From an uncultured Bacteroidales bacterium (GTDB lineage: Bacteria; Bacteroidota; Bacteroidia; Bacteroidales; Paludibacteraceae): a DNA stretch of 32,000 nucleotides. Under the pieces are notes generated by a model, which saw nothing but the letters and a program-made list of their open reading frames with translations, was not told where the DNA came from and ran no database searches. The position numbers and the translations under genes are program-made. The DNA lies in the NCBI GenBank assembly GCA_902774185.1, contig CACYHE010000001.1:108332-140331 (forward strand). Direction: 5' to 3'. Below are positions 2,460 through 25,852 of the stretch, piece after piece. Every line of letters starts with the position of its first letter. Position 1 is the first letter of the stretch.

Positions 2460-3536
2460 TTAGTCTCTCATTAAATCTTCTATAATGCGGTTGAGCAGAT
2501 GGATCCCTTGCTGCGTAGCGATGACGCGGTTGTTCTTTATTTGCAACAAACCGGCTTCCAATAGGTCGTCGATGTCCCCGTCTATATCTTCCCTTGCCAC
2601 ACCTTGGCATGTTCGTAAACCCAACATTATGTGTTCGTTATAGCGGTCGGTTTCGGTGAGGGTCTCTTGTTCCCGAATGAGTGTCCCGTCTTCGATGCCG
2701 CGTATGTAAGCATCCAAGTCATCGGGGTTCCAACTGCGTACATTCCTTATATAACTATGCGCGCCTGCGCCCACGCCTACGTAGGGGGTGTTGTTCCAAT
2801 AACTGCCGTTATGCTGCGAGGCGTATCCGGGTAAGGCGAAGTTACTCACCTCATAATGGACGAATCCCGCCTGCTGTAAGCGCTCACACAGATAGTCGTA
2901 CATCGCATTCTCCGTGTCCTCGTCGATCGCCTTAATTCGTTCATTCATTAATTCATTATACAAGGCCGTACCGGGTTCGTACATCAAGCCGTAACACGAT
3001 ATATGTCGGATGCCGAGTGTCAATGCGGTCTCGATGTCCGCTTTCCATTGGTCCATCGTCTGCGTAGGCAAGGCGTATATCAGGTCGATGGATATATTGT
3101 CCAAGCCTGCTTCCTGTGCCATATGTACGGCATCGATGGCTTGCTGTGCATTATGTCTTCGTCCAATCAGTGTCAGCAAGTCATCTTGGAAGGACTGTAC
3201 GCCCATTGAGAGACGGTTGACACCCAAAGCACGCAAACCCTGCAGGTATTCCTTCGTGACATCGCCCGGGTTGACCTCCACCGTATATTCCGCTACCTGA
3301 TCCCTATTCAGCACGTGGTTAATACGGGTCATCGCTTCCAAGGACAAGGTGCTTGGCGTTCCGCCGCCTATATAGATCGTGCGGATCGGTTCGCCTGCTT
3401 CGTCCTGCCGTGCTTTTATCTCTTGGACCAATGCCGATACATACGCGTCCTGCCGCTCCAACCGGGTGGTGGAGAAGAAATCGCAATACAAGCAGCGCTT
3501 CTTGCAGAACGGAATATGTATATACAGACCGGACAA
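2460..3536 (-). CDS. hemW: Radical SAM heme chaperone HemW (HemN-like, coproporphyrinogen III oxidase family)
   Basis: The N-terminus MSGLYIHIPFCKKRCLYCDF carries the CxxxCxxC radical SAM motif, and a HemN_C-like tail follows. The start codon at 3534-3536 is TTG, the first start after an in-frame TAA. Confidence 0.9.
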   Translation of the reverse strand: MSGLYIHIPFCKKRCLYCDFFSTTRLERQDAYVSALVQEIKARQDEAGEPIRTIYIGGGTPSTLSLEAMTRINHVLNRDQVAEYTVEVNPGDVTKEYLQGLRALGVNRLSMGVQSFQDDLLTLIGRRHNAQQAIDAVHMAQEAGLDNISIDLIYALPTQTMDQWKADIETALTLGIRHISCYGLMYEPGTALYNELMNERIKAIDEDTENAMYDYLCERLQQAGFVHYEVSNFALPGYASQHNGSYWNNTPYVGVGAGAHSYIRNVRSWNPDDLDAYIRGIEDGTLIREQETLTETDRYNEHIMLGLRTCQGVAREDIDGDIDDLLEAGLLQIKNNRVIATQQGIHLLNRIIEDLMRD

Positions 3537-3570
3537 TTTATGATTTATGATTTATGATTTATGATTTGTG
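3536..3570. repeat. Heptamer array atttatg x5 (sense cataaat)
   Basis: atttatg x4 followed by atttgtg. It fills the hemW-rarA junction and contains the rarA TAA stop (3559-3561) and its last 3 codons. It abuts the hemW TTG start. Confidence 0.95.
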
Positions 3571-4782
3571 CCAAAACTCTGTGCCGACGAGTTCATCGGG
3601 TAAGTACTGCTGCGCTACCCAATGGTTCGGGTAATCATGCGGGTACAAGTACCCGTCGGCGTACCCGAGATCTTTCATCAAACTCGTCGGAGCGTTACGC
3701 AGGTGTAAGGGAACGGGTAGGTTACCCGTCTCACGCACTTTAGCCAAGGCATCGTCGATGGCCAAATAAGCGGAGTTATCTTTCTTGCAGGTAGCCAGAT
3801 AGATGGTTGTCTCTGCCAAGGGGATACGTCCTTCGGGCCAACCGATCTTATTCACCACATCGAAGCAAGTGTTGGCGAGTAACATCGCATTGGGGTTCGC
3901 CAAACCGATATCTTCGCTTGCCAGAATGACGAGTCGCCGTGCAATGAACTTCGGATCCTCCCCGCCTTCTATCATGCGTGCCAACCAGTAGATGGCAGCT
4001 TGCGGATCGCTACCCCGAACGGACTTGATGAAGGCAGAGATGATGTCGTAGTGCATCTCGCCGTCCTTGTCGTACGCGACGGGGTTCTGTTGTAACTGTT
4101 TGGTGACCGTCTCATTATCAATGATTTTCGCACCGCTGTTACTTACCAGTTCGATGATATTGAGTAGCTTGCGTGCGTCACCTCCACTATACCGCAAGAG
4201 TGCCTCGGTTTGTTTGACTTCGATATGAAGCGAACGGATGATCTCATCTTTGGTGAAGACGCGGTTGAGCAGTTCCATCAGGTCCTCTTTGTCGAGCGAC
4301 TTGAGGACATAGACCTGACACCGGCTGAGGAGCGGGGTGATCACTTCGAAAGACGGGTTCTCGGTCGTGGCACCGATAAGGGTGATCGTTCCTTCTTCCA
4401 CCGCACCCAAGAGGCTGTCCTGTTGGGATTTGGAGAAACGGTGGATCTCATCGATGAAGAGGATGGGGGAACGACTGTCCGCAGGCGCAAAGAGACCGCT
4501 GTTGATGGACGCAGTGCGTTTGGCTTTGTCAATGACGTCCCGTACTTCCTTCACGCCGCTCGTGACCGCACTGAGGGTGTAGAAAGGTCGTTGCAGTTGG
4601 TGCGCGATGATACGGGCAAGGGTTGTCTTACCTACACCCGGAGGTCCCCATAAGATGAAACTGGCGATATTTCCGCTCTCTATCATCTGACGAAGGATGG
4701 CTCCTTGTCCCACCAAATGGCGTTGACCTATGTATTCGTCCAGCGTCTTCGGACGCATGCGTTCTGCTAATGGCAAACTCAT
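3559..4782 (-). CDS. rarA: Replication-associated recombination protein A (AAA+ ATPase RarA/MgsA)
   Basis: Walker [10 protein letters not shown], Walker [11 protein letters not shown] and an MgsA_C-like C-terminal domain. ATG at 4780-4782. Confidence 0.93.
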
Positions 4783-4815
4783 TTATGATGTACGATTTAC
4801 GATGTACGATTTAAT
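4781..4815. repeat. Heptamer array with a 14-bp super-unit (atttacg atgtacg)
   Basis: atttatg atgtacg atttacg atgtacg atttaat. It contains the rarA ATG (4780-4782), the recN TAA (4797-4799) and the recN C-terminal residues LNRTS. Confidence 0.95.
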
Positions 4816-6377: not shown

Positions 6378-6379
6378 TT

Positions 6380-6409
6380 CTTTCAACTTTCAACTTTAAA
6401 CTTTCAACT
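6380..6409. repeat. Heptamer array ctttcaa x4 (sense ttgaaag), recN leader
   Basis: ctttcaa ctttcaa ctttaaa ctttcaa ct. Positions 6379-6409 are identical (31 nt) to 9024-9054 inside aroE. Confidence 0.95.
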
Positions 6410-6410
6410 G

Positions 6411-6436
6411 ACAGAATCAATTTCCGTTGATTCTGT
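6411..6436 (-). terminator. Perfect 10-bp stem / 6-nt loop hairpin spanning the DUF4835 stop codon
   Basis: acagaatcaa (6411-6420) and ttgattctgt (6427-6436) are exact reverse complements. The TGA stop at 6417-6419 lies inside the stem. There is no U-tract. Confidence 0.35.
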
Positions 6437-7343
6437 CATACGTTGCCTGCCGGGTGGCATCGATATCCATCAGCAGGTCATACACTGTTTTCTTCTCTTT
6501 GTCCGTTCCTTTGCTGAAGATATCCACCAACTCATCGGCTTTGGCGTCCAGGAAAGTGTTGATGACGTAGGTAGCGGGACGGGAACGATAGGCCTCTTTG
6601 AGCACCGGAATGCCTTCGGCGATACGTGCTCTGCCGTTGGTGGCATTGGCACTCATCTCGTCCAAACCCAAACGGTGGTACTCGTAATAGAAATTGCGGT
6701 ATTTCTTGAAAGACTCATCCAAGAGGTTATTAATCAGCGCGTAACGGTTTCGGTTACTGTTAAACGCCGTCCATCCTTTCTGTTCCTTATCGTCCATGCT
6801 CACACCTTGGCAGAGGGTGACGATCTGTTCGCATTGCTGGAAGAACGGGGTGCCGCCTAAACGCTGAAAACTATCGCAGTCATGCCCGATGATGAGATAA
6901 CAGTAGTACGCCAACATCGCCGTGAGGTTGGTAGAGAATGTGTTCTGCTGCCACTCGATGCGGTCAAACTCCTCGTACGTGAAATTGAAGTTTTCATCCC
7001 GGAAGTTGAGGAGCGGGGTGGTGTAGGTCGTGCCAAAGACGGGACGACGGCTCTGTAGTGTCATCTCGCAAAGGTACAGGTTGTCCTGCACGGCTTTTAC
7101 AACAAGTAACATGCTGCACTCGATTTTCTCATGCTCCGCAAAGGTCATGTTGGTCCATCGGTTCTGGTTCATGTACTCTTCGATGGCGGTCTTGAGGGTG
7201 GCAAAGGCCTGTTTGTTCGAACCCTCTATCTGATCCGAGTTCACCGTGACCGTGCATTTGAGTTCCTGGGCATGAAGGGGAGCACAGAACACAGAACACA
7301 GAACACAGACCGATAATGCTATGTATCTAAATTTTAAAATCAT
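6417..7343 (-). CDS. DUF4835 family protein (PorD-like), secreted
   Basis: Signal peptide MILKFRYIALSVCVLCSVFCAPLHA/QE followed by a VTVNSDQIEGSNKQAF...NQNRWT block typical of DUF4835. Its position next to recN is the usual Bacteroidota synteny. The family name is from memory. Confidence 0.8.
   Translation of the reverse strand: MILKFRYIALSVCVLCSVFCAPLHAQELKCTVTVNSDQIEGSNKQAFATLKTAIEEYMNQNRWTNMTFAEHEKIECSMLLVVKAVQDNLYLCEMTLQSRRPVFGTTYTTPLLNFRDENFNFTYEEFDRIEWQQNTFSTNLTAMLAYYCYLIIGHDCDSFQRLGGTPFFQQCEQIVTLCQGVSMDDKEQKGWTAFNSNRNRYALINNLLDESFKKYRNFYYEYHRLGLDEMSANATNGRARIAEGIPVLKEAYRSRPATYVINTFLDAKADELVDIFSKGTDKEKKTVYDLLMDIDATRQATYDRINGN
7283..7310. repeat. Heptamer array cacagaa x4 (sense ttctgtg)
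   Basis: cacagaa x3 followed by cacagac. It encodes VCVLCSVFC, the h-region of the DUF4835 signal peptide. Confidence 0.95.
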
Positions 7344-7366
7344 AAATCTAAAATCTCAAATATCAA
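7325..7366. repeat. Degenerate heptamer array atctaaa-type x6
   Basis: atctaaa ttttaaa atcataa atctaaa atctcaa atatcaa. It spans the DUF4835 start (7341-7343) and the junction to the DUF4831 stop. Confidence 0.8.
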
Positions 7367-8453: not shown

Positions 8454-9170
8454 TCAATTATTCCAAATCTTCCAAGCTTCTTTGGCTTGACCTGTTAACA
8501 TCTCTATTCCGTTCTGCGTTCGGACACCTTGTGCTTTGCCTTTACGCAAGAAGAGGGTCTCTTCGGGGTTGTAGATACAATCGTACAACAAATGTTGTGC
8601 CGAAAGGTGTTCGTAGGGTATCGGCGGACAAGTATCGATATCCGGATACATGCCTAATGGCGTACAGTTGACGATGACCGTATGGCGGTTCATGATGTCG
8701 GAATCCAAATCGTCGTACGTCAAGGTTCCTTCTGCAGCATGCCTACTGACAAGGGTAGGGACGATCCCTAACAGCCGTAACGCATAGCACACGGCTTTGG
8801 CGGCACCGCCAGTACCTAACACCAAGGCCTGTCGGTCTTGTTTGTGCAACAATGGTCTTATCGATTCCATGAATCCGATATAGTCGGTGTTGTAACCGGT
8901 TCGTTGATACACCACGTTTACGGCGCCTATCGCTTGTGCCGTCGGGTCGATACGATTCAGGTACGGGATAATCGCCTGTTTATACGGATACGTCACATTA
9001 AACCCGTCCAAATCGGACAAAAGTCTTTCAACTTTCAACTTTAAACTTTCAACTCTCGTTGGGTACAACGAGTACTCCGCCTCTATGCCTTCTGTCGCAA
9101 ATTTCTGATTGAAGAACTGCGCAGAGAACGAGTGTTCCAATGGAAATCCTATGATACCGAAGTGACGCAT
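8454..9170 (-). CDS. aroE: Shikimate dehydrogenase
   Basis: MRHFGIIGFPLEHSFS, GFNVTYPYK, GAVN and the NADP-binding GTGGAAKAV motif. It contains a translated heptamer array at 9025-9054 (RVESLKLKVER). Confidence 0.9.
   Translation of the reverse strand: MRHFGIIGFPLEHSFSAQFFNQKFATEGIEAEYSLYPTRVESLKLKVERLLSDLDGFNVTYPYKQAIIPYLNRIDPTAQAIGAVNVVYQRTGYNTDYIGFMESIRPLLHKQDRQALVLGTGGAAKAVCYALRLLGIVPTLVSRHAAEGTLTYDDLDSDIMNRHTVIVNCTPLGMYPDIDTCPPIPYEHLSAQHLLYDCIYNPEETLFLRKGKAQGVRTQNGIEMLTGQAKEAWKIWNN
9025..9054. repeat. Heptamer array ctttcaa x4, translated inside aroE
   Basis: ctttcaa ctttcaa ctttaaa ctttcaa ct. It is read in frame as RVESLKLKVER. Confidence 0.95.
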
Positions 9171-10032: not shown

Positions 10033-10055
10033 CTAATCCACTAATCCACTAATCC
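10033..10055. repeat. Octamer array ctaatcca x2.9 (sense tggattag)
   Basis: ctaatcca ctaatcca ctaatcc. It lies at the tilS-ettA junction and contains the ettA TAG stop (10041-10043) and its last residues. Confidence 0.9.
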
Positions 10056-11717: not shown

Positions 11718-11719
11718 TT

Positions 11720-11749
11720 CTTTCAACTTTAAACTTTCAACTTTCAACT
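11720..11749. repeat. Heptamer array ctttcaa x4 (sense ttgaaag), ettA leader and folA 3' end
   Basis: ctttcaa ctttaaa ctttcaa ctttcaa ct. The flanks catttc...ctg are identical to those of array 6380-6409. Confidence 0.95.
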
Positions 11750-12234: not shown

Positions 12235-12281
12235 GTTTTACTTTTCAATTTGGGTGTTTTAAGAAAAAAACCTAAATGACA

Positions 12282-12402
12282 CTTTTGAATGATTAAGCGT
12301 TTCACGCTTCCCGTGCTTTGCAGCTAAAAAATCCTTGTAAATAAATTTCCAGATATTTTTTATCACCAAATCACGCCTCTATCGAGTTCAATCATTCAAA
12401 AG
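12282..12402. repeat. 121-bp element bounded by a perfect 13-bp inverted repeat (MITE-like, E1)
   Basis: cttttgaatgatt (12282-12294) and aatcattcaaaag (12390-12402) are exact reverse complements. By eye, the interior resembles the reverse complement of element 13169-13291. Confidence 0.5.
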
Positions 12403-12422
12403 ACATATACATAAAAAACAAT

Positions 12423-12689
12423 TTATTTCTTTTTACGTTGAATAAAATAAATTATGGTTGAAATGATAGCAACCGGAGCACCTACAAATATGCCTATGAA
12501 TCCACACGTACATGCGAAATAGACACAGCCACGTATCCATTTCGGGGCAAATCCCAAAGCATCTGAGGAATCATACCCAAGCACGACGCTAGCATAGGTT
12601 CCTATTCCTACGTATAGTAGAATACAAATAACAGTAACTACCCAAGAGGTAATCAATACTCGTTTTGCTATTTGTAGAGACTCGCTCAT
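12423..12689 (-). CDS. Small hypothetical membrane protein (88 aa, 2-3 predicted TM helices, KKK tail)
   Basis: The ORF has hydrophobic segments VLITSWVVTVICILLYVGIG and GFIGIFVGAPVAIISTIIYF. It sits 7 nt downstream of the GxxExxY gene, is visibly AT-rich, and has no family I recognise. Confidence 0.55.
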   Translation of the reverse strand: MSESLQIAKRVLITSWVVTVICILLYVGIGTYASVVLGYDSSDALGFAPKWIRGCVYFACTCGFIGIFVGAPVAIISTIIYFIQRKKK

Positions 12690-12696
12690 AATTGCA

Positions 12697-13140
12697 TCAA
12701 AACATATACATTACGCCATCCTTGGTATCCAAGTAGTAGTGTTCCGCTTGGTCCATGGGAGGGGCAAAGTTCCACAAAATACCGATCTGCTTGCCGGTCA
12801 GGCGCATGTAGTTCCACAGTTGCTGACGATGCTCCGCTACCAGTTTGTCCACCGCCTTGCACTCTATAATGACCTCATCATTAATCAGGAAATCTACGAA
12901 GTGCTTATGCTGTATGGGCTTGCCGTGAAAGACTACCGAGAAGTAGTACTCACGCTGGTAAGGTATCTGTTGCTCGTCCAGTAGAATCTGCAATGCTTCC
13001 TGATACATATACTCATTCAAGAAAGGTCCAAGCTCGCGGTGTACAGCAGCGCACGCACCATTGATGGCGTAGCATTTAGCCTTTAGTTGCTCGCACAACT
13101 CCGGGTGCTTGTCTATCAATCTTTTCAGCGTATATTGCAT
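12697..13140 (-). CDS. GxxExxY family protein (TIGR04256-like, PD-(D/E)XK nuclease-like fold)
   Basis: 147 aa. The HRELGPFLNEYMYQEAL segment followed by ...DFLINDEVIIECKAV... matches my memory of the multi-copy Bacteroidota GxxExxY family. Confidence 0.75.
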   Translation of the reverse strand: MQYTLKRLIDKHPELCEQLKAKCYAINGACAAVHRELGPFLNEYMYQEALQILLDEQQIPYQREYYFSVVFHGKPIQHKHFVDFLINDEVIIECKAVDKLVAEHRQQLWNYMRLTGKQIGILWNFAPPMDQAEHYYLDTKDGVMYMF

Positions 13141-13168
13141 AATCGAAAAATGTTTTTTGTGTTTATGT

Positions 13169-13291
13169 CTGATTATTGATTTTTAATTCGAAGAATTTGG
13201 AAGATTATTTTGATAAAATGATTTGCAAATTTATTTGTGAAAGCAGTTTAGCAAAATAAGATTCGTATTGTCAAATAAAATCAATAATCAG
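13169..13291. repeat. 123-bp element bounded by a perfect 15-bp inverted repeat (MITE-like, E2); carries the likely GxxExxY promoter
   Basis: ctgattattgatttt (13169-13183) and aaaatcaataatcag (13277-13291) are exact reverse complements. The interior holds a minus-strand TTTG-N18-TAAATTTG. Confidence 0.5.
13226..13255 (-). promoter_or_regulatory. Probable promoter of the GxxExxY / small-membrane-protein pair
   Basis: The minus strand reads TTTG (13252-13255), N18, TAAATTTG (13226-13233), about 85 nt upstream of the ATG at 13140. Confidence 0.4.
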
Positions 13292-13353
13292 GGTTTTGTA
13301 TGTTTTTTTCTTAAATTATCAATCAGTGTTTTATATGTTTTTTTCCTTCAAAT
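13281..13353. repeat. Tandem imperfect duplication of about 37 bp just downstream of the thyA stop
   Basis: tcaataatcagggttttgtatgtttttttcttaaatt versus tcaatcagtgttttatatgtttttttccttcaaat. The first copy includes the right inverted-repeat arm of element 13169-13291. Confidence 0.7.
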
Positions 13354-13354
13354 T

Positions 13355-14203: not shown

Positions 14204-16294
14204 CTAGTATAGTTTATACGTTGTTTTGAGTACCTTGAACTCGGTACGACGGTTGATCTGGTTGCAGATCTCTTGTTTGTCAATCGGCAGACTGTTGATG
14301 AACGTCTCGTCCAGCACTTGCTCAACCGGTATCCACGGATATTGCTTGTTAAGCGCCTTGTCTGCCACCACCGGTTTGGTTTTACCGTATCCTACCGGCG
14401 TCAGACGTTCTTTCTCAATACCGTGTTGGATGAGGTAGTCACAGCAACTCTGTGCACGTTTCTGACTTAACTCGTTGTTGAACTCGTCCGTACCCTTCAA
14501 GTCCGTATGGGCACTGAGCTCAATGGTGATATTGGGGTTGTCGTTAAGCAGTTTAACCAATTTCTCCATCTCTTTCTCCGAGGCCTGCGTCAACTCCCAT
14601 CGACCGAACTCATAGAACACATTCTCCATCGTGACGGGTCGGCTAATCGGTTGCAGCACAAAGTCCATCGTGTAGGTCTTGCTGTCCTTCAAACCGAAGG
14701 TGTTCCATTGCTCTTTGGCGTTCAGATAACCTCTGGCGGTGACTAACATGACGTACTTGACGTCTTGTTGCAGTTTGATCTTGTACTTACCGTCCCGACG
14801 GGCGTTGAGTTTACTGTTCGTGCCGTCGGATCCCACAATACGCAACATGGCGTCGGCGATAGGATTGCCCAAACCGTCGTTCACCGTCCCTTGTGCTATG
14901 AACTCCATCTCAGGCAAGGTAAACTGGTAGATCTTATCCATCCCTTTCTTATCGCCTCGGTTGGAGGAGAAGAAACCGTTCTGACTGTTTCCGGCAAAAG
15001 TGATACCGAAGTCATCGCCGGCTCCGTTGAAGGGCGCCCCCATGTTAAACAGGATCCACACGACGCTGTCTTTGTAGGTCGTGTCACGTGTGGCTTTGAA
15101 GATATCCAGACCTCCGTAACCCGGATGACCGTTCGAGGCAAAATAGAGCGTACCGTCAGCGTGTACATAAGGGAACATCTCATCGGCACTCGTGTTGATT
15201 CCGGCTTCCAAAGGATGCGCGTTCACCCATTGGTTTTCTGCCAACTCCGCCATCCAGATATCTTTTCCTCCTTGACCGCCCGGTGCATCACTGGCGAAAT
15301 AGAGCGTGTCACCCATCGGACTGAGCGCAGGATGACCCACCGTGATCGTACTGTCGGTAAATAGTTTGACTTCCTGTGCTTCGCCCCATTCACCGCTTGC
15401 CCGTTCACTACAGTAGATCTTAGCACCCAGATCCTGACCGTTGATAGGCTTGGAGTAAGTGAAATACATCATCCTGCCGTCCTTGGTAAAGCAGCACGCA
15501 CCCATCTCTGCGTTCGCTCCGCCTTTACCACTGGTCGAGTCATTCTGTTGTTCCTCTTCCTCTTGATCCCCGTACAAACCCTCTGCCGGTTCTATCTCTT
15601 CCCATTCTCCGGCTGCGTTCTTGCGTGTCTGGTAGAGTTGGAAAAGCTGTTGACCCGTCACGTTACTGGCGCGTTTGAGTTTTTTCGTTCCCTTCTCTTT
15701 GGACTCCTGCCGGTTTGATGTGAACATGAGTGCGTCGTTTTGATCACCGATGAACATCGGGGCGAAGTTACTGCTGCGTTTCTTGTTAAACATCTTCGCT
15801 TCGCTTACCTTGTACCGGCTGGTCTCTTTCTTCCACTCGTCCATCTTCGTGCAAGCGTACTTGCCGGCCTGCGCTACATAGTCATCGGGATGGGCTTCCA
15901 GATAGGAATCGTAGTGCTTGATGGCATCTTTGTATTTACCTTGGTTCTGCAGCACTTGTGCGGCATGCAGGTAAATCGTCGAGTCCTGTAACTGGTACTT
16001 ACAACGCAATGCACTCTGGTAAGCATTAGCAGCACGGGGATTATTGATATAGCGGTAACACTCCGCCTGACGGTAAGCGACGTAGCCCTTCAAGTCCCGT
16101 TGCTTCTGCGTACTGAGCCGACTATAACAGGACTTGTAGATCTCTCCGGCCGCATAGTACTCCCCGATGGCGTATTTCTTATCCGCCCGCTTGATACGTT
16201 GCTGGATAGAGCACCCGCTCAGAAGAATTGAAAATTGAAAAATGAAAATTGAAAGGAGAAAACCTTTCACCTTTGACCTATCACTTTTCAACAT
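14204..16294 (-). CDS. OmpA-family lipoprotein with TPR, TolB-like beta-propeller, CarboxypepD_reg-like and OmpA C-terminal domains
   Basis: Lipobox LLSGC, TPR-like AECYRYINNPRAANAYQSAL, WD40-like repeats (YFASD/YFASN), and a C-terminal OmpA motif (LSAHTDLKGTDEFNNELSQKRAQS). I chose the ATG at 16292-16294 (MLKSDRSKVKGFLL...). The track start at 16315 is a GTG inside a repeat. Confidence 0.88.
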   Translation of the reverse strand: MLKSDRSKVKGFLLSIFIFQFSILLSGCSIQQRIKRADKKYAIGEYYAAGEIYKSCYSRLSTQKQRDLKGYVAYRQAECYRYINNPRAANAYQSALRCKYQLQDSTIYLHAAQVLQNQGKYKDAIKHYDSYLEAHPDDYVAQAGKYACTKMDEWKKETSRYKVSEAKMFNKKRSSNFAPMFIGDQNDALMFTSNRQESKEKGTKKLKRASNVTGQQLFQLYQTRKNAAGEWEEIEPAEGLYGDQEEEEQQNDSTSGKGGANAEMGACCFTKDGRMMYFTYSKPINGQDLGAKIYCSERASGEWGEAQEVKLFTDSTITVGHPALSPMGDTLYFASDAPGGQGGKDIWMAELAENQWVNAHPLEAGINTSADEMFPYVHADGTLYFASNGHPGYGGLDIFKATRDTTYKDSVVWILFNMGAPFNGAGDDFGITFAGNSQNGFFSSNRGDKKGMDKIYQFTLPEMEFIAQGTVNDGLGNPIADAMLRIVGSDGTNSKLNARRDGKYKIKLQQDVKYVMLVTARGYLNAKEQWNTFGLKDSKTYTMDFVLQPISRPVTMENVFYEFGRWELTQASEKEMEKLVKLLNDNPNITIELSAHTDLKGTDEFNNELSQKRAQSCCDYLIQHGIEKERLTPVGYGKTKPVVADKALNKQYPWIPVEQVLDETFINSLPIDKQEICNQINRRTEFKVLKTTYKLY
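16228..16255. repeat. Heptamer array ttgaaaa x4 (sense ttttcaa)
   Basis: ttgaaaa ttgaaaa atgaaaa ttgaaag. It encodes LSIFIFQFS of the OmpA-family lipoprotein signal peptide. Confidence 0.95.
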
Positions 16295-16328
16295 ATATTT
16301 CCTTTCACTTTTCACCTTTCACCTTTCA
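16263..16328. repeat. Heptamer array cctttca, 4 + 4 units split by a 10-nt spacer (sense tgaaagg)
   Basis: cctttca cctttga cctatca cttttca / acatatattt / cctttca cttttca cctttca cctttca. The spacer carries the ATG at 16292-16294. The last unit carries the DUF1015 TGA stop (16326-16328). Confidence 0.95.
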
Positions 16329-17615
16329 ATTTAGCTCGTGGATTACCAATCCCGAGCGTAACTTGGGTTCAAACCATGTGGTCTTGGGCGGCATGATATT
16401 GCCGCTATCGGCGATGTCGATGATCTGCTGCATGGTAACGGGGTAGAGCGCCAAAGCCACTTTCATCTCTCCGCTATCCACTCTCTGCTTCAACTCGCCC
16501 AGACCACGGATACCGCCTACGAAGTCGATTCGTTTGTCCGTACGCAGATCTTTGATGCCAAGGATCTTATCCAGAATAAGATTACTCGATATCGTAACAT
16601 CCAGCACACCTATCGGGTCCGCATCATTATAGCGTCCCTCCTTAGCGGTCAACGAGTACCACTTCCCGCCCAGATACAGGCTGAAGTTGTGCAGCGCTTT
16701 GGGTTTTACATCATTAAGCACGGAGGATTGCCTGTGGCCATCCGAATCGAGCAAGTCACCATTATAACATTCAACAATGAAGTCCTTATTAAGGGCTTCG
16801 AGGAACTCCTCCTCGCTAAGTCCGTTCAGGTCTTTTACCACACGGTTATAATCGATGATATTGAGTTGATTATCCGGGAAACAAACGGCTAAGAAATACT
16901 CGTACTCAGGAACCTTAATTTTTAATTTTTCATTTTTAATTTTTAATTCCTGTCCTACGCCAGCCGCCGCAGCTGAACGATGGTGTCCGTCAGCGATGTA
17001 CATCGCCGGAATCTCCGCAAAGATCTCGGTGATACGATCAATCGTCTTTTTGTCCTCAATGATCCAGAACGTGTGACGGAATCCTTCCGGAGCGGCTACG
17101 AAGTCATACTCCGGTGTGCCCTTGGTTACTTCTGCAACGATAGCATCAAGGTCGTCCCGGTGAGGGTAGGCGAAGAATACCGGTTCCATGTTCGCGTTCA
17201 GCGTACGTACATGTTTCATGCGGTCTTCCTCTTTGTCCTTACGCGTCAACTCATGTTTCTTAATGCGTCCCTCCAGATAGTCATCTACCCAAGCGCCGAC
17301 AACCAAACCATACTGCGTCTTGCCAAAACCCGTTTGCGCGTAAACGTAGTATTTCTCCTCTTGGTCTTGTTCCAACCAACCTTTGACACGAAAACGCTTG
17401 TATTGTGACAACGCCTCCTGATACACACGAGGGTCATGCTCATCGGTACCGGGTTCAAAATTGATCTCCGGCTTGATGATATGATACAGACTCATCTCGT
17501 TGCCTTCCGCTTCCTGACGTGCCTCCTCGGAGTTCAATACGTCATACGGCCGACTACTCACTTTGGTCACCAACTCTTTCGGTGGCCGTATTCCCTTAAA
17601 TGGTTTTATCTTCAT
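16326..17615 (-). CDS. DUF1015 family protein
   Basis: MKIKPFKGIRP..., the ADGHHR motif, and 429 aa. It contains a translated heptamer array at 16915-16949 (ELKIKNEKLKIK). Confidence 0.88.
   Translation of the reverse strand: MKIKPFKGIRPPKELVTKVSSRPYDVLNSEEARQEAEGNEMSLYHIIKPEINFEPGTDEHDPRVYQEALSQYKRFRVKGWLEQDQEEKYYVYAQTGFGKTQYGLVVGAWVDDYLEGRIKKHELTRKDKEEDRMKHVRTLNANMEPVFFAYPHRDDLDAIVAEVTKGTPEYDFVAAPEGFRHTFWIIEDKKTIDRITEIFAEIPAMYIADGHHRSAAAAGVGQELKIKNEKLKIKVPEYEYFLAVCFPDNQLNIIDYNRVVKDLNGLSEEEFLEALNKDFIVECYNGDLLDSDGHRQSSVLNDVKPKALHNFSLYLGGKWYSLTAKEGRYNDADPIGVLDVTISSNLILDKILGIKDLRTDKRIDFVGGIRGLGELKQRVDSGEMKVALALYPVTMQQIIDIADSGNIMPPKTTWFEPKLRSGLVIHELN
16915..16949. repeat. Heptamer array ttaattt x5, translated inside the DUF1015 gene
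   Basis: ttaattt ttaattt ttcattt ttaattt ttaattc. The sense strand reads ELKIKNEKLKIK. Confidence 0.95.
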
Positions 17616-17620
17616 CGTTT

Positions 17621-17686
17621 GATTTACGATTTTATGATTTACGATTTTACGATTTATTAGACGATTTCGATAAATTTAACGATTTG
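17621..17686. repeat. gatttac/gattttac array (alternating 7/8 bp, 15-bp super-unit) grading into degenerate copies
   Basis: gatttac gattttat gatttac gattttac gatttattagac gatttc gataaatttaac gatttg. It lies directly upstream of the DUF1015 ATG. Confidence 0.9.
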
Positions 17687-17709
17687 TAGAAGACAATGGT
17701 CCAATTCTG

Positions 17710-17766
17710 TCAATTGATCAATTGATCAATCAATCGTCCAATCGTCAATCGTCCAATCGTCAATTA
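17710..17766. repeat. tcaattga x2 followed by a caatcgtc/caatcgt array (7/8 alternation, 15-bp super-unit x2)
   Basis: tcaattga tcaattga tcaat caatcgtc caatcgt caatcgtc caatcgt caatta. It ends at the bactofilin TAA (17764-17766). Confidence 0.9.
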
Positions 17767-18126
17767 TTTCGTCGGCGCAGCCTTTGGCTGACCCATAGCG
17801 CATGTTCCGTTGAACTGTGCACCCGGTTCTACGATCAAAGTCTTTGTCTGTACATCGCCTTGGATCTTACCGCTTGCACGCAGACTCAGCTGTTGACTGC
17901 AGTTGATCTTGCCGTCCAGAAGACCCATGATCTCGGCGTTCTGACAGTTAACCGTACCTTTGATACGACCCGATTCGCCGATTACTACTTTACCCGAACA
18001 ATTTAATTCACCTTCGATCAAACCATCGATACGGTAATCGCTATCCGCCGTGATGGTTCCTACGATTTTACTTCCTGCGGTCAGCGCATTGAACATCAAA
18101 CCGCTTTGTTGTCTCTCATTTGCCAT
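17764..18126 (-). CDS. Bactofilin (polymer-forming cytoskeletal protein, DUF583)
   Basis: Repetitive beta-helix pattern: IVGTITADSDYRIDGLIEGELNCSGKVVIGESGRIKGTV... Start chosen at MANERQQ (ATG 18124-18126). Confidence 0.85.
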   Translation of the reverse strand: MANERQQSGLMFNALTAGSKIVGTITADSDYRIDGLIEGELNCSGKVVIGESGRIKGTVNCQNAEIMGLLDGKINCSQQLSLRASGKIQGDVQTKTLIVEPGAQFNGTCAMGQPKAAPTK

Positions 18127-18140
18127 AATATAATTATTTA

Positions 18141-18161
18141 TCAATTGTCAATTATCAATTA
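18141..18161. repeat. Heptamer array tcaattg/tcaatta x3
   Basis: tcaattg tcaatta tcaatta. It lies at the bactofilin-esterase junction and contains the esterase TGA stop (18155-18157). Confidence 0.85.
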
Positions 18162-18901
18162 TTGAAAAGTTTCGGCAAGAAACGTTTCAAATACTCTTGC
18201 CAATTCGGCCATACATGACCGTCCGTACTCTCGTAATACGTGTACTCCACATGCTCTTTTTCAAGCCATTTGCGGTACTCCTGAAAACTATCCCACAGAA
18301 AATCCTCCGTACCGATACCCAACCAGAACACTTTCGCGTCTTTCGGAGCATTATGAACGAACGTAGCCGGCGAGAACATTCCTACATACGCAAATTGTCC
18401 TTCCAACACATAGGACACCCGCATCGTGTGGTAACCACCCATTGAGAGACCGGCGATCGCGCGTTGCTCGGGATCCGTGCAGATACGGTATTTCGACTCT
18501 GTCTCCTTCATGAAAGCACCGAAGTTCGCTTCCCATTGACCGTTGGACGCGTTCTCTCTCTCTTCCTCCGAAGTAGGCCTGCTCGGACAGTTATCCGGCA
18601 TCACGACAACCATCTCACGTATCTCGCCTGCGCGTAGAAGGGAGTCCATAATAGGCACTAATCGACCCTGTGTGGTCCAGTCGAACTCATTTCCCCACAT
18701 CCCGTGTTGCAGATAGAGCACCGGAAAGACCTCCGTACGTGCTGCGTACTGATCCGGCAGATAGACACAGCAGGGCACGCCGTTCAAGGTGTCTTGTACC
18801 ACCGTACCGGCCTGTAACGGCCTGTCTTCCACCTGTTTCGCACATGCTATACTCATGCACGCGATACCTATCAGATAGGCACTAAAAATCCATTTCTTCA
18901 T
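18155..18901 (-). CDS. Esterase family alpha/beta hydrolase, lipoprotein or secreted
   Basis: Signal peptide MKKWIFSAYLIGIACMSIAC, the GLSMGG nucleophile elbow, and a PF00756-like layout. Start at ATG 18899-18901. The upstream track extension reads through the promoter. Confidence 0.85.
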   Translation of the reverse strand: MKKWIFSAYLIGIACMSIACAKQVEDRPLQAGTVVQDTLNGVPCCVYLPDQYAARTEVFPVLYLQHGMWGNEFDWTTQGRLVPIMDSLLRAGEIREMVVVMPDNCPSRPTSEEERENASNGQWEANFGAFMKETESKYRICTDPEQRAIAGLSMGGYHTMRVSYVLEGQFAYVGMFSPATFVHNAPKDAKVFWLGIGTEDFLWDSFQEYRKWLEKEHVEYTYYESTDGHVWPNWQEYLKRFLPKLFNN

Positions 18902-18954: not shown

Positions 18955-19110
18955 CACGCGCGTACTTTTTTATGATTTTTATTACTTTTTCCTTCTTCCA
19001 AATTCGCATAGTTCAAAATTATTTGTTCCTTAATATCCTATGTATCGAACTCAACCATCGATACCTGTGTAATCCATGTAAAATAAAGGCTTGCCACGTA
19101 TGCGTATTGG

Positions 19111-19150
19111 GTGATTATAGGGAGATTATTGCGTGATTATTGCGTGATTC
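19111..19150. repeat. 11-bp period tandem repeat gtgattattgc x3.6
   Basis: gtgattatagg gagattattgc gtgattattgc gtgattc. It lies in the spacer between the FGE stop and the esterase promoter. Confidence 0.85.
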
Positions 19151-19205
19151 AACACAATATTCATAGAACATAAATCAATTAAAAACCACAAAATCATAGT
19201 GTTAT

Positions 19206-19220
19206 GGTAAGAGGCTTACC
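19206..19220 (-). terminator. Small hairpin just after the FGE gene stop
   Basis: ggtaag agg cttacc, a 6-bp stem with a 3-nt loop. This is weak evidence. Confidence 0.2.
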
Positions 19221-19223
19221 GGC

Positions 19224-20534
19224 TTATCGAACGGGGATGACTAACCGAAGAGGGCGAGACTCGTCGTCGGCTTGTTTGAATTGCAAGAGTACCGGGTCGT
19301 CAGGTTTAGGCAGGCGTACTCCAACTAATTCCGTCAAGGGAGAGAGTTTGTCGGCAACTCTCCGTTTACGTTGGATAGAACGGATTGATTCCTTCTTGTG
19401 GCTCACGTTCGGTTGATACGCTTCGATAATATGTTGCTGCTCTGCCAATACAATCTGTTCGGCAGACGCGACTAACAGAGCCTCTTTGGCTGACCGACTG
19501 CAATATTCGGCAAAACGAGTACGGTCGGACTTATTCATTCCGAGCGCTATGCTTTTGCATCGATCCGGTGGATCTTTCTGCATCATTTTCTTCCATAGCG
19601 AACACTCTACTTCTTCTGAGATATAATACGGTTGTTCTGCCGGCACATAGACAAAGCGCAACTTCTTGCTCTTGATACGTATAGAGCGAATAAGCGGCGG
19701 TTCTTCCTCTTGCTGTATTTGCTGCATGGGATCGTTCGGCAGCGTCAGCGCCACACGGAAACCGATATACTCTGTAGCTGTCTCCGGTAAGTGCCAACGA
19801 CGCACGGAGAGATGGCTGTTTGCCACACATTCGTCGTAACTTCCGCCACGTACAATACGGTAACTCCCCGTATCGGCGCCACATGGATCGGGCTGTGTGC
19901 TAAGCGTGTAAGGACCATAGATATCCTGACACCATTCTGACACGTTGCCGGTCATGTCGTACAAGCCCAATTCGTTCGGTTGCTTGCGTCCTACAGGATG
20001 TTTCCAATCTCCCGAACAGGGATAGGTCCAACCGACACTATCTGCTTCATTTCCGCCTGCAAAACGATAGGCTTTGCTCTTTGCTCCGCCTCGTGCCGCA
20101 TATTCCCATTCGGCTTCTGTCGGCAAACGAAACGGAAGACCTGTGATGCTATCCAACCGCCGCACAAACTCCTGACAATCAAACCATGACACGTATGAGA
20201 CAGGTACGGTCGGATAACCTTCCGGGTTGATAATCTCCCGTTCGGGCATCAAGGCACGCCATAGTTGAACGGTCACCTCTGTAGTGGCAATATAGTAGGG
20301 AGAAAGAAAAACGAGGTGAGCCGGTTTGTCAGTATAGGTATCTTTGTCCGTCTGGTCGAGCGTGGCACCCATCATAAACGATCCGCCTTCGACCCGTTGC
20401 ATGGAAAATTCGATACCGTTGATCTGCATTTCCAGGCGTTGCAACGAATCGGGAACAATCGGTTTATGCTTACGCGCACAAATCGGTAATACGCAAACGA
20501 TGGAGATAAATAATATGATGCCTCTTACATGCAC
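19224..20534 (-). CDS. Formylglycine-generating enzyme (SUMF1/FGE-sulfatase) domain protein with an uncharacterised C-terminal extension of about 150 aa
   Basis: GGSFMMG, WEYAARGG, NVSEWCQD and RGGSY motifs after a signal peptide. GTG start at 20532-20534. Confidence 0.82.
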   Translation of the reverse strand: MHVRGIILFISIVCVLPICARKHKPIVPDSLQRLEMQINGIEFSMQRVEGGSFMMGATLDQTDKDTYTDKPAHLVFLSPYYIATTEVTVQLWRALMPEREIINPEGYPTVPVSYVSWFDCQEFVRRLDSITGLPFRLPTEAEWEYAARGGAKSKAYRFAGGNEADSVGWTYPCSGDWKHPVGRKQPNELGLYDMTGNVSEWCQDIYGPYTLSTQPDPCGADTGSYRIVRGGSYDECVANSHLSVRRWHLPETATEYIGFRVALTLPNDPMQQIQQEEEPPLIRSIRIKSKKLRFVYVPAEQPYYISEEVECSLWKKMMQKDPPDRCKSIALGMNKSDRTRFAEYCSRSAKEALLVASAEQIVLAEQQHIIEAYQPNVSHKKESIRSIQRKRRVADKLSPLTELVGVRLPKPDDPVLLQFKQADDESRPLRLVIPVR

Positions 20535-20688
20535 GCCTTGTCCCTAACAAATACTGTGCCATATATAAAATGTGATATTTTCTTATTTTGCGTGTTTTTT
20601 GGGGAATGGAGAAGATGAGGAATGAAAATCGAGGGGGTGTCGAAAAATGAATAAAAATCGCTTAAAATGCAAAAAAATGGGCAAAAAA

Positions 20689-20720
20689 CTTGCGTATGTC
20701 AAAAAAAAGTAGTAATTTTG
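20689..20720 (+). promoter_or_regulatory. Bacteroidota sigma-A type promoter of the SIMPL gene
   Basis: cTTGcgtatgtcaaaaaaaagtagTAatTTTGc. The -7 box TAATTTTG lies at 20713-20720. The 22-nt core is identical to the esterase promoter. Confidence 0.7.
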
Positions 20721-20738: not shown

Positions 20739-21425
20739 ATGAAAAATAATGTTTTTGCGGGCGCGTTGGTAGCGCTGGGTTTATGTCTTGGAGGTTTGTT
20801 CATTAACCTCGGTATTAATAAGTTTGCCTCGAAAGATCGGGCGGTGACGGTGAAGGGTCTGAGTACCCGTGAAGTGGAAGCGGACTATGCCGTTTGGCCT
20901 TTGTCGTTTGCATGGAGCGGAAATGATCTGCCGGCACTCTATACGAAGTTGGAACAAGTGACCGAGCGGGTGAAGAACCATCTGCAGTCCCTGGGCTTTG
21001 AGGAAGCCGATATCCGGCAGGGTAGTGTGTCGGTTAGCAATAACTGGGACGGATACTACGGTAATCGTCCGGAATTCAAATATACGCTGAGTACGTCGCT
21101 TATCGTTTCGACCGATAAAGTGGCGTTGGTTGTGGCGAGTCAAGGAAAGGAATCCGCTTTGCTCAAAGAGGGAATCATCGTGACTACAGAGAAATGGAAT
21201 CTGGATTACCAGTTCAACGGTCTGCCTGAGTTGAAGCCGTCGATGATCGAAGAGGCAACGCGTAATGCCCGTGCGGTCGCACAGAAATTTGCGGACGATG
21301 CCCAATGTAACTTGGGTTCGATCCGTCAAGCCAGCCAAGGACAGTTCTCCATCGAGTCCGACCAGTACCAGCCTTGGCGCAAACATGTACGCGTCGTGAC
21401 GACCGTTGATTATTATCTCAATTAA
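20739..21425 (+). CDS. SIMPL domain-containing protein (DUF541)
   Basis: MKNNVFAGALVALGLCLGGLFINLG (TM anchor) followed by DRAVTVKGLSTREVEADYAVWPL, typical of Bacteroidales SIMPL proteins. ATG at 20739, 19 nt after a TAATTTTG -7 box. Confidence 0.85.
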   Translation: MKNNVFAGALVALGLCLGGLFINLGINKFASKDRAVTVKGLSTREVEADYAVWPLSFAWSGNDLPALYTKLEQVTERVKNHLQSLGFEEADIRQGSVSVSNNWDGYYGNRPEFKYTLSTSLIVSTDKVALVVASQGKESALLKEGIIVTTEKWNLDYQFNGLPELKPSMIEEATRNARAVAQKFADDAQCNLGSIRQASQGQFSIESDQYQPWRKHVRVVTTVDYYLN

Positions 21426-21454
21426 GAATTAAGAATTACGAATTAAGAATCAAA
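21420..21454. repeat. Heptamer array aattaag x5, gyrA leader
   Basis: aattaag aattaag aattacg aattaag aatcaaa. It contains the SIMPL TAA stop (21423-21425) and ends 11 nt before the gyrA ATG. Confidence 0.95.
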
Positions 21455-25383: not shown

Positions 25384-25805
25384 TGGGTCGCATTCTCGCA
25401 ATAGATTACGGTCGTAAACGCACAGGATTAGCCGTTACGGATATTCTCCGCATAACGGCTAATCCGTTGCTTACGATTGAGACGAAGGATTTGATAAACT
25501 GGTTGACGGGCTACTTCGCTAAAGAAGCTGTTGACGAAGTGGTTATCGGTCATCCGACCCAGATGAACGGTACAGAATCGGAGTCGATGAATTATATCCG
25601 ACCGTTCATGGGCGTATTTAAAAAGACGTTTCCAGACAAACCTATAACTATGTATGACGAGCGCTTCACGTCGGTATTGGCGCACAGGGCAATGATTGAC
25701 GGGGGAATGAAGAAAAAAGACCGACAGGACAAAGCGGTAGTGGATAAGATCGCCGCATGTATCATCCTCGAGGGTTACCTCGAGAAGTTGAAAGTTGAGA
25801 GTTGA
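25383..25805 (+). CDS. ruvX: Holliday junction resolvase-like protein RuvX (YqgF)
   Basis: MGRILAIDYGRKRTGLAV and DERFTS motifs. TAATG overlap with the upstream gene. Its TGA stop at 25803-25805 lies inside array 25788-25815. Confidence 0.9.
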   Translation: MGRILAIDYGRKRTGLAVTDILRITANPLLTIETKDLINWLTGYFAKEAVDEVVIGHPTQMNGTESESMNYIRPFMGVFKKTFPDKPITMYDERFTSVLAHRAMIDGGMKKKDRQDKAVVDKIAACIILEGYLEKLKVES

Positions 25806-25815
25806 AAGTTGAAAG
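25788..25815. repeat. Heptamer array ttgaaag x4 on the plus (sense) strand
   Basis: ttgaaag ttgagag ttgaaag ttgaaag. It encodes the ruvX C-terminus KLKVES plus its TGA stop. This is the same unit family as 6380, 9025 and 11720, again in sense orientation. Confidence 0.95.
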
Positions 25816-25852
25816 AAGTTATATAGTATATATAGTAGAAAGTTATTAGAGT

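Follow-up and report, generated by a model that had tools for sequence, protein, structure and literature searches.

Stop-bearing heptanucleotide arrays at compact gene junctions of an uncultured Bacteroidales: probably simple-sequence repeats rather than purpose-built stop insulators

Introduction

What is the role of a stop triplet that recurs in every unit of a tandem array, when the array lies exactly between two genes? The question is raised by the rarA/hemW junction in a 32-kb window (the whole stretch of DNA analysed here) from the genome of an uncultured gut Bacteroidales, probably of the rumen. A sequence-only reading of the window proposed that such arrays act as natural three-frame stop insulators. 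The junction is one instance of a local abundance: the window holds about 20 heptamer-type arrays, 14 at junctions and 6 translated, and its density of period-7/8 arrays is 0.81 per kb, where most of 80 related loci have about 0.1 per kb. The account favored below is that the stop in each focal unit is probably incidental, a consequence of how long the repeat is and of its base composition, and not a purpose-built insulator.

Genes were called with a codon-usage-scored caller, which reproduced the genes of the window; naive longest-ORF calling got hemW and ruvX wrong. Metagenomes were also scanned for (TTGAAAG)3; the matches came from very varied contexts and organisms and were used only for a test of orientation and as a source of extra arrays. 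A scan of the whole window against Rfam gave no family at threshold, and a tRNA/tmRNA scan found none.

The rarA/hemW junction

The focal array occupies positions 3536–3570, with the sense sequence CACAAAT(CATAAAT)4 on the minus strand; the plus strand reads (ATTTATG)4 followed by ATTTGTG. It amounts to 4.6 perfect copies (TRF score 64) and lies beyond chance, with 0 matches expected in a dinucleotide-shuffle control. It spans the stop codon of rarA (also mgsA; 3559–4782, minus strand, 407 aa; RuvB_N, AAA and MgsA_C domains) and abuts the start of a hemW-like radical SAM gene (2460–3536, minus strand, 358 aa; Radical_SAM and HemN_C domains), the domains being public Pfam calls from the same genome. 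An exact-protein look-up for rarA found no record. The public gene call for rarA in this genome begins 8 codons later, because of array sequence; arrays mislead gene callers. Around the focal array, a scan for sigma-70 promoters and intrinsic terminators gave weak consensus matches only, from a model unsuited to Bacteroidetes.

On the sense strand the junction reads CAC AAA TCA TAA, then ATCATAAATCATAAATCATAAA, then TTG. The last three codons of rarA and its TAA stop at 3561–3559 (HKS*) are thus array sequence; 22 nt lead from that stop to the hemW TTG at 3536–3534, which is formed by the degenerate last unit AAATTGT. Four TAA triplets at 7-nt spacing close all three frames, and on the antisense strand four TGA triplets likewise close all three. 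In these respects, including the TTG start at the array edge, the junction is as the sequence-only reading described it. That reading had also supposed that insertion of the array reshaped the native hemW start, and comparison with the related species L001 and L002, whose rarA is 94% and 92% identical, bears this out: both are without the array, and the TAG of rarA overlaps a GTG start of hemW (TAGTG), leaving one frame closed; the hemW N-terminus found here aligns with theirs. These are the only loci where hemW adjoins rarA, 78 other rarA loci having been checked for a hemW start. The conspecific strain L210, ~97% identical, has 2+1 units and is 14 nt shorter, with only two frames closed. Change in unit number at this junction shifts only the stop-to-start spacing (8 vs 22 nt), not the reading frame.

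Arrays across the window

At most junctions the array ends 0–5 nt from the start codon. On the minus strand, an AAATCGT/ACATCGT array between recN and rarA (4781–4815) holds the recN stop, ends at the rarA ATG and carries three TAA triplets covering three frames. An (AGTTGAA)4.3 array (6380–6409) lies directly upstream of the recN ATG; another (11720–11749), between folA and an ABC-F gene, holds the folA stop. An octamer array, (GGATTAGT)3, between ABC-F and tilS (10033–10055) holds the ABC-F stop, with TAG three times at period 8. A (GATTTTA-like)n array (7325–7361) spans the start codon of a DUF4835 gene. Two inverted blocks, TTGACGA/TTGGACGA and AAATCGT, separate a bactofilin gene from a DUF1015 gene (17620–17764), and (TAATTGA)3.6 between an esterase gene and the bactofilin gene (18138–18162) holds the esterase stop; both arrays carry TAA and TGA. 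Blocks of (TGAAAGG)n, rich in TGA (72–134), follow the PBP1A stop and contain the ATG of the next gene, which encodes a TPR protein and is also called at L209 12213. On the plus strand, (GAATTAA)4.4 between a SIMPL gene and gyrA (21420–21450) holds the upstream stop; (AAGTTGA)4.4 between ruvX and def (25785–25815) holds the ruvX stop and has four TGA triplets; and the octamer array (GAATTAGG)n between an AsnC-type regulator gene and trpS (31514–31557) ends at the trpS ATG. The stop content that had been ascribed to the arrays at 4781, 25788, 10033, 72, 16263, 17621 and 18141 proved correct.

None of the six translated arrays has an in-frame stop. On the minus strand, (TTTTCAA)4 (25–51) encodes the hydrophobic core of the TPR protein signal peptide. 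A related composite, (TGAAAGG)n then (TTTTCAA)n (16226–16328), takes in the DUF1015 stop and, for an OmpA-like protein, both the ATG and the lipoprotein signal peptide; its translated TTTTCAA part is 16226–16262 and its TGA-rich part 16263–16328. The (TTCTGTG)4 array (7283–7309) is translated within the DUF4835 signal peptide, as a module common to two other genes. Inside genes lie (AGTTGAA)4.3 in aroE (9025–9054), (AAATTAA)4.9 in the DUF1015 gene (16915–16948) and, on the plus strand, (AGTCGAA)4.3 in cinA (28021–28050). Sense-strand stops number zero in 25–51, 16226–16262, 7283–7309 and 28021–28050, in keeping with what had been claimed for the translated TTTTCAA, TTCTGTG and GTCGAAA arrays. 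The remaining two had been said to owe their reading frame to a single fixing substitution. One variant unit does open the frame in each (unit 2 in 9025–9054, a T-to-G variant in 16915–16948); the frame-opening unit TTTAAAG is found in the untranslated 6380 and 11720 arrays as well.

Variation among strains and species

Junctions that are otherwise conserved may have or lack an array, and whole units are gained or lost between strains about 97% identical, the differences in L202 and L206 being 7 or 8 nt. L202 has one unit fewer at 4781; the 10033 array has 3 units here and 2 in L202, and is missing from both L210 and L001; the 18138 array has one extra unit in L202 and L206, and the unit number at 21420 varies in the same two. 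The 6380 array is missing in L202, L204, L210, L001 and L002, where TGA and ATG overlap. The 11720 array is present in L001 and L202 and missing in L210, whose two genes share a 14-nt overlap; the 25785 array is missing in L206 and L208, with an ATGA overlap instead. Among translated arrays, that at 16915 is missing in strain L206, and in L001 every unit of the aroE array is TTGAAGA with the architecture unchanged, a concerted change between species. At 17620, an unrelated spacer is found in L202, L204 and L206.

Array-less alleles with overlapping stop and start are known for four junctions, and array-less alleles are found at 6380, 10033, 11720 and 25785. Without an array the junction is in its ancestral form, stop and start overlapping compactly as TAGTG, TGATG or ATGA or over 14 nt; in the filled allele that overlap is split, the upstream gene has a new stop and altered last few residues, and there remains a short spacer ending at or a few bases from the next start codon.

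Stop content and composition

A role as insulator would mean that arrays are kept for their capacity to halt ribosomes of any frame ahead of the next cistron. Much of the window looks at first sight as though this were so: all 14 junction arrays carry sense stops, 10 of the 14 close three frames, and 10 of this genome's 16 junction arrays contain the codon at which the upstream gene actually terminates. That a stop-bearing unit of period 7 closes every frame within three units, as the sequence-only reading supposed, is arithmetic.

The check set beforehand was for an excess of stops over composition-matched heptamers, and none was found, which on the terms of the sequence-only reading refutes the insulator role. 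A sense stop is present in 57 of 87 co-directional junction arrays, with 59.8 expected from letter-permuted units; for the window alone the figures are 8 and 7.7. In a curated set from the same genome, 15–16 of 16 arrays have a sense stop against 13.3 expected by letter permutation, for which P = 0.04 if all 16 arrays are counted and P = 0.14 if 11 unit families are. A second check compared the strands and did not refute the idea, an asymmetry being present: among discordant arrays, 36 have stops only on the sense strand versus 15 only on the antisense strand (p = 0.005). However, composition alone predicts 59.8 sense versus 37.7 antisense; the sense strand is ahead only because the units are A/G/T-rich and C-poor. 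Base fractions are A.43, C.05, G.23, T.29 on the sense strand of the junction arrays and A.41, C.15, G.13, T.32 in native upstream regions. Single arrays, A-rich and C-poor on the sense strand, are also predicted to be less structured than shuffled controls. One comparison does leave a residue: every junction array in this genome has sense stops, well above the 52–54% expected if heptamers were drawn from native upstream sequence (P about 1e-3 when counted by unit family), and there may be a filter or selection that acts on composition.

Nor is closure conserved. It is lost in L210 at the focal array and in L202 at 10033; arrays 6380, 11720, 17620 and 21420 leave one frame open, two of them bearing the frame-opening variant itself; sister strains and species work with overlapping stop and start and no array; and of the window's 27 co-directional junctions an array is found at only 13. 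Orientation tells the same way: at co-directional junctions of metagenome loci, where gene calls on short contigs are crude, the sense strand reads TTGAAAG 17 times and CTTTCAA 22 times, so that the stop-bearing orientation of this duplex is not preferred.

A correlation of stop content with translation status had been put forward as an informative point. Coding arrays are indeed depleted of stop-bearing units, 13 versus 22.1 expected, and none closes three frames, but the correlation is largely definitional, because no ORF can contain an array whose sense stops cover all frames.

Origin and persistence of the arrays

One way to understand these arrays, and probably the right one, is as hypervariable heptanucleotide simple-sequence repeats, the focal tract being one among many. 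They would arise and change by replication slippage and be moved or homogenized by recombination, and they would survive only at sites that can accommodate a period other than a multiple of three: in the gap that separates a stop from the following start, or in coding sequence of low constraint (signal peptides, the aroE helix) with the copy number locked to the frame. One stop per unit then follows from a period of 7, coprime with 3, together with the A/G/T alphabet and survivorship. For most units a stop triplet appears in 73–100% of letter permutations (range, 60–100%), and a stop-less array just ahead of a compact junction would leave the upstream ORF fused or lengthened, to be lost or else scored as translated. 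Stops would make junction arrays tolerable; they do not count as evidence for an evolved insulator.

Slippage does not sit comfortably with every observation. Copy number at period 7 does not follow the geometric distribution that simple slippage predicts but has a second mode at 4.0–4.9 copies, about 30 nt; this is seen for period 7 only, and L027 has a mode of 4.5 copies for period 6. The array units have no obvious derivation from empty-site sequence: duplication of local sequence was considered as their source and set aside, comparison of four junctions having given no convincing similarity. The stop content exceeds that of native upstream heptamers in this genome.

A second perspective supposes that the arrays act as translation-initiation or regulatory leaders: an unstructured, A-rich RNA spacer, or a binding site for an RNA-binding protein of the S1 or Csp type, might uncouple the downstream gene, with copy number tuning or phase-varying its translation. 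This we think unlikely. The closeness to start codons at most junctions is what such a leader would show, as are the consistently A/G/T-rich sense strand in this genome, the TTGAAAG unit followed by AA-ATG at two starts, and the polymorphic copy number. Folding predictions also lean this way, single arrays scoring z = +0.1 to +1.3 against shuffles; predicted hairpins lie in paired blocks, 25–51 with 72–134 (z = -4.7), within 16226–16328 (z = -3.4) and in the inverted blocks of 17620–17764 (z = -3.4). There is precedent in TAACTGA repeats, for which S1- or Csp-type binding has been proposed (PMC4679880). Against this, there are at least 11 diverse unit families, which argues against one sequence-specific binder; the duplex occurs near starts in either orientation across metagenomes; and array-less alleles are common among sister strains.

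A variant of the leader idea concerns Shine-Dalgarno pairing. The TGAAAGG unit contains GAAAGG, a complement of the 16S tail; Bacteroidetes are largely without Shine-Dalgarno-led initiation, a point in favor of a leader role in general, and this lineage probably does not rely on such pairing. The arrays were dropped as Shine-Dalgarno-like sites, most unit families being without such a motif.

A third perspective gives the ~30-nt length a meaning of its own. That quantized cassettes of about this size, together with larger modules, are copied into gene boundaries and remodel operon junctions, bringing new stops, spacers, start contexts and complete signal peptides that are exchanged between strains, seems to us distinctly unlikely; that they are pre-formed and copied into gene boundaries by a dedicated mechanism, and not grown in place, has little chance of being right. 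The sharp copy-number mode without geometric decay (for period 7, and in L027 for period 6), and units unlike the empty-site sequence, are what such copying would produce. So are the shared modules: an identical 31-mer, variant unit included, at 6379–6409 (non-coding) and 9024–9054 (coding, in aroE), a match that would have roughly a 1-in-84 chance had the two arisen independently; a 44–48-nt signal-peptide module, 96–98% identical, at three unrelated gene starts; the similarity of module 16226–16328 to 25–134; and, in a 97%-identical strain, the exchange of the whole signal peptide of the same gene for a different array. Identical modules at unrelated sites require copying between sites, not local slippage alone. 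Yet ectopic recombination between arrays could account for them, and an expansion/contraction equilibrium around a focal length could account for the mode; unit-by-unit indels show ordinary slippage to be active, and neither a target-site duplication nor terminal repeats nor an associated enzyme gene came to light.

The evolved three-frame stop insulator, finally, we consider very improbable, on the composition, conservation and orientation results given above.

Simple-sequence repeats thus remain the preferred reading, and under it the locus has an interest of its own. The insulator idea adds little: stops in three frames are a matter of arithmetic, known from the TAACTGA repeats (PMC4679880), and neither enriched nor conserved here. 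What the locus offers is a clean natural example, with filled and empty alleles in strains about 97% identical, of simple-sequence repeats rebuilding compact operon junctions, in which stop/start overlaps are separated and C-termini and start codons rewritten. The interest would be wider if arrays did tune translation or spread by a dedicated mechanism.

Relation to known systems

Long simple-sequence repeats of prokaryotes have units of 5–11 nt, with heptanucleotides the most abundant (Mrazek 2007, as cited in PMC4679880 and PMC4692102); heptameric repeats are described as over-represented in bacteria, and slippage has been proposed for them (PMC4692102, citing Mrazek 2007). The focal and related arrays share the defining features: at least three tandem copies beyond chance, polymorphism by whole units, and a position that is mostly non-coding or else frame-locked. 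Like the GGGAATC and GGGGA(C/T)T arrays of Xanthomonas and Nostoc, they are mostly intergenic, lie between co-directional ORFs near an ORF end, and vary in length among close relatives, polymerase slippage being the proposed cause; unlike those arrays, which are G-rich, quadruplex-forming and often long, they are A/T/G-rich, ~30 nt long and set against start codons. Heterocystous cyanobacteria are reported, in Calothrix PCC 7601, to carry STRR heptanucleotide repeats (cited in PMC4692102), which resemble the arrays here, by description, as tandem families dispersed in non-coding DNA. They differ, again by description, in phylum and in units, and STRR arrays are longer.

The phase-variable simple-sequence repeats of Haemophilus and Neisseria are known as contingency loci. 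With these the arrays have in common an instability of unit number by slippage and strain polymorphism beside or within genes; unlike them, a change of unit at the focal junction alters spacing and not frame, and the genes are housekeeping genes. Three-frame stop linkers, or translational insulators, are engineered into cloning vectors; each is a short tract with a stop in every frame, as here, but those are designed, whereas the property here is incidental, unconserved and not above composition.

The closest parallel is the TAACTGA repeat. Its copies lie just upstream of start codons, and stops in three frames have already been noted there; forward repeats have stops in all three frames, so that overlap is possible only with ORF ends, and the few translated copies are in a permissive orientation (PMC4679880). 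As in TAACTGA-type repeats (MacGregor 2015), the arrays here are tandem heptamers of 2–6 copies and come to within a few nucleotides of the start codon that follows, often taking in the upstream stop. That system has one dominant unit per genome, whereas at least 11 unrelated unit families are found here; tandem TAACTGA is absent from the window, which has 2 single copies only. The present system differs further in that some arrays form inverted pairs of blocks and some code for signal peptides, and in the strain-level data on copy number and on presence or absence given here.

The rarA/hemW junction

On the plus strand, positions 3536-3570 read (ATTTATG)x4 followed by ATTTGTG; TRF scores the array at 64 with 4.6 perfect copies, and zero matches are expected from shuffled sequence. 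The minus strand carries the genes from 133 to 20534 and is the sense strand here. Public Pfam calls in the same genome identify the upstream ORF as rarA/mgsA (3559-4782, minus, 407 aa) and the downstream one as a hemW-type radical SAM protein (2460-3536, minus, 358 aa); between them the sense strand reads TGG CAC AAA TCA TAA / ATCATAAATCATAAATCATAAA / TTG TCC GGT. The sequence-only reading had placed the rarA stop and last three codons within the array, and the sequence bears this out. Its statement that TAA every 7 nt closes all three frames also stands (four TAA, 7-nt spacing, three frames shut), and its remaining sequence statements all held on checking. The stop-bearing array at this junction is confirmed.

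The earliest possible hemW start is the TTG at 3536-3534, itself part of a degenerate last unit (AAATTGT vs AAATCAT). The same reading supposed that the array had displaced or reshaped the native start. In two related species (L001 and L002) the array is absent, and the rarA TAG overlaps a GTG hemW start (TAGTG). The supposition is supported in part: start and second codon differ in this species, but the relatives were already non-ATG. In strain L210, 96.8% identical over 12 kb, the array is two units shorter; two TAA close two frames, and an 8-nt gap leads to the same TTG.

Such arrays have misled public gene calls: in this genome rarA comes out 8 codons too short (399 vs 407 aa; L205/L209 7555-8754), and the called gpsA start reaches into a (TAAATGG)5 junction array (L209 about 20903-20950).

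Distribution of the arrays

The source species, an uncultured Bacteroidales bacterium, is represented by contigs of ENA sample ERZ1029112, 100% identical to the window, and by assemblies of about 97% identity (L202, L203 [GCA_017446895.1], L204, L206, L208 and L210), which are therefore conspecific strains. The rarA gene is 94% and 92% identical in two Bacteroidales MAGs (L001, L002) and 79% in a Paludibacteraceae MAG. Arrays of period 7 or 8 fill 26 TRF rows in the window (0.81 per kb); among 80 related loci most have about 0.1 per kb, and only one Prevotellaceae MAG (L027) has a similar density. Arrays occupy 13 of the window's 27 co-directional gene junctions, usually with 0-5 nt between array and following start codon, and six more are translated, in signal peptides, aroE, DUF1015 and cinA.

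At about 19000-20700, where cumulative GC skew is at its lowest, genes turn from minus to plus orientation; the site may be a replication origin region or a mere strand switch. For every window array, sense strand is accordingly confounded with putative leading strand. In several Bacteroidetes-like contigs (metagenome loci L104, L140, L144, L146, L147, L158, L191 and L194), (CTTTCAA)n lies directly upstream of a TAnnTTTG-type motif (other strand: ...GCAAAGGTACAAA); since the motif resembles the Bacteroidetes -7 promoter box, some arrays may occupy promoter-upstream positions.

Variation among strains and origin of the arrays

Strains that are 97% identical differ by indels of whole units, the signature that slipped-strand replication leaves at simple-sequence repeats. 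Arrays 4781, 18138 and 21420 (named by window start) differ by whole units among strains, and array 10033 has 3, 2 or 0 units depending on the strain. Others are missing altogether: 6380 from L202, L204, L210, L001 and L002, leaving a TGATG overlap; 11720 from L210, with a 14-nt overlap between folA and the next start; and 25785 from L206 and L208, which have an ATGA overlap and a RuvX C-terminus of ...LESKL* vs ...LEKLKVES* with the array. One frame is left open by 4 of 14 window junction arrays. Two of the four contain TTTAAAG, the variant to which the translated copy in aroE owes its open reading frame. At co-directional junctions across metagenomes, the sense strand of (TTGAAAG)n duplexes is the stop-free one 22 times and the stop-bearing one 17 times, with crude gene calls on these short contigs. 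The three-frame stop property is neither conserved nor needed.

Each 7-nt unit shifts the reading frame, so that arrays survive in only two settings: the interval separating a stop from the following start, and permissive coding stretches where copy number is locked. The unit of the aroE array is TTGAAAG here and TTGAAGA in L001; its four units have all changed in step between the species, and unit 2 has kept its frame-opening variant. This is concerted evolution, with selection keeping the frame open. Coding arrays are poor in stop-bearing units (13 vs 22.1 expected), and none shuts three frames.

At 17610-17775, between bactofilin and DUF1015, the spacer consists of two inverted array blocks. 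Conspecific strains have in its place about 130 nt of unrelated sequence that includes an ordinary hairpin, and their bactofilin C-terminus is different. A 1.1-kb insertion (12235-13354) separates thyA from folA, which overlap directly in L202, L203, L204 and L210. Of the insertion's two small genes, one encodes an 88-aa membrane protein and the other a PDDEXK_3 protein; it also contains a repeat at 13286-13354 (35 nt, x1.9). Over the DUF4835 stop, at 6410-6437, lies a perfect 11-12-bp hairpin (GACAGAATCAA / TTGATTCTGTC) whose 3' arm is an inverted copy of the end of that gene; hairpin and adjoining array are both missing from sister strains, and this joint absence suggests a template-switch insertion. 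A period-11 repeat at 19105-19149 (TATTGGGTGAT, 4.1 copies; 3' intergenic, downstream of an FGE-sulfatase gene) is kept with point changes in 97%-identical strains.

On a second view, arrays would spread by copying from site to site or be the products of a dedicated process, or else would work as leaders with which translation can be tuned. Its probability is low; it is kept alive by the copy-number distribution, a repeated 31-mer, a signal-peptide module and a swap of that module in L210. In the window, L027 and metagenome loci alike, period-7 arrays show a second peak in copy number, at 4.0-4.9 (about 30 nt); periods 8-11 decay monotonically from 2 copies, and period-6 arrays of L027 cluster too, at 4.5 copies. 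An identical 31-mer (TCTTTCAACTTTCAACTTTAAACTTTCAACT, plus strand) occurs at 6379-6409, non-coding upstream of recN, and at 9024-9054, translated within aroE; the two share a variant unit that only the coding copy needs. There are near-identical versions of it at 11718-11749 and, in inverted orientation, at 25786-25817. Three unrelated genes (window 7279-7326; TraB start, L209 about 14216-14290; amidase start, L209 about 15115-15200) carry at their 5' ends a 44-48-nt module, ATACATAGCATTATCG(G/A)(TCTGTGT)4, with 96-98% identity between copies, which gives their proteins nearly one signal peptide (KYIALSVCVLCSVFCAP..AQ); in the 97%-identical L210, a (TTGTCAA)4 array encodes the TraB signal peptide instead.

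The composite (TGAAAGG)n - ATG - (TGAAAGG)n - (TTTTCAA)4 is present twice, at 1-134 (TPR protein) and 16226-16328 (OmpA-like lipoprotein), each time encoding the Met, basic n-region and hydrophobic core of a signal peptide and folding as a strong predicted hairpin (z = -4.7 and -3.4, respectively). Paired inverted arrays have strong predicted hairpins (z -3.2 to -4.7); for single arrays, less structure is predicted than for shuffled sequence (z +0.1 to +1.3).

Stop content and composition

The weakest perspective is that of the sequence-only reading, in which junction arrays are natural three-frame stop insulators with more stops than composition-matched heptamers. A gene caller scored by codon usage, written for this analysis, reproduced the window's genes. 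With it, every period-7/8 array with at least three copies in the fetched loci (2.03 Mb) was classified; with the seed arrays of the metagenome scan excluded, 87 lay at co-directional junctions. A stop-bearing sense-strand unit was found in 57 of the 87, against 59.8 expected when each unit's letters are permuted; by the reading's own measure, this lack of excess refutes it. Antisense stops numbered 36 (37.7 expected). Stops are indeed more frequent on the sense strand, as that reading requires (36 sense-only vs 15 antisense-only arrays, p = 0.005), but composition alone predicts an equal gap, because sense-strand units are purine-rich with T. With an A/G/T alphabet, a stop is present in 73-100% of letter orders for most units here (range 60-100%).

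Window arrays alone give 8 with a sense stop vs 7.7 expected. Of 16 junction arrays curated by hand from this genome (window plus 14 kb of extensions), 15-16 have sense stops against 13.3 expected, with P = 0.04 if all 16 are taken as independent and P = 0.14 for the 11 distinct unit families; antisense stops are 5 vs 5.4 expected. Against another null, heptamers of native Bacteroidales upstream regions (52-54% with a stop), arrays are richer (P about 1e-3 by family), because base composition differs: junction arrays have 5% C and 23% G on their sense strand, native upstream regions 15% C and 13% G.

Once an array has inserted into a compact junction, the upstream ORF runs into it and ends at the first in-frame stop, at most seven codons on; an array without stops would lengthen or fuse that ORF. 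The real upstream stop lies inside the array at 10 of 16 junction arrays. Composition and this survivorship filter jointly explain why every junction array here has stops. Except in the trivial sense that units with stops are the ones compact junctions can host, the insulator interpretation is not supported.

Relation to known heptamer repeats

Of the long SSR classes, that of heptanucleotides is reported to be the most over-represented in many bacteria; it is mostly intergenic, and slippage has been proposed to cause it (Mrazek 2007, as cited in PMC4679880 and PMC4692102). In Beggiatoaceae, cyanobacteria and five Bacteroidetes, Paludibacter among them, TAACTGA heptamer repeats stand at most a few nt before start codons; forward repeats have stops in all three frames and hence can overlap only with ORF ends (MacGregor 2015, PMC4679880). 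The property singled out by the sequence-only reading was thus already described. Tandem TAACTGA does not occur in the window. The present arrays are another example of the same known kind of feature; they differ from the TAACTGA repeats in that their units are distinct and far more varied.
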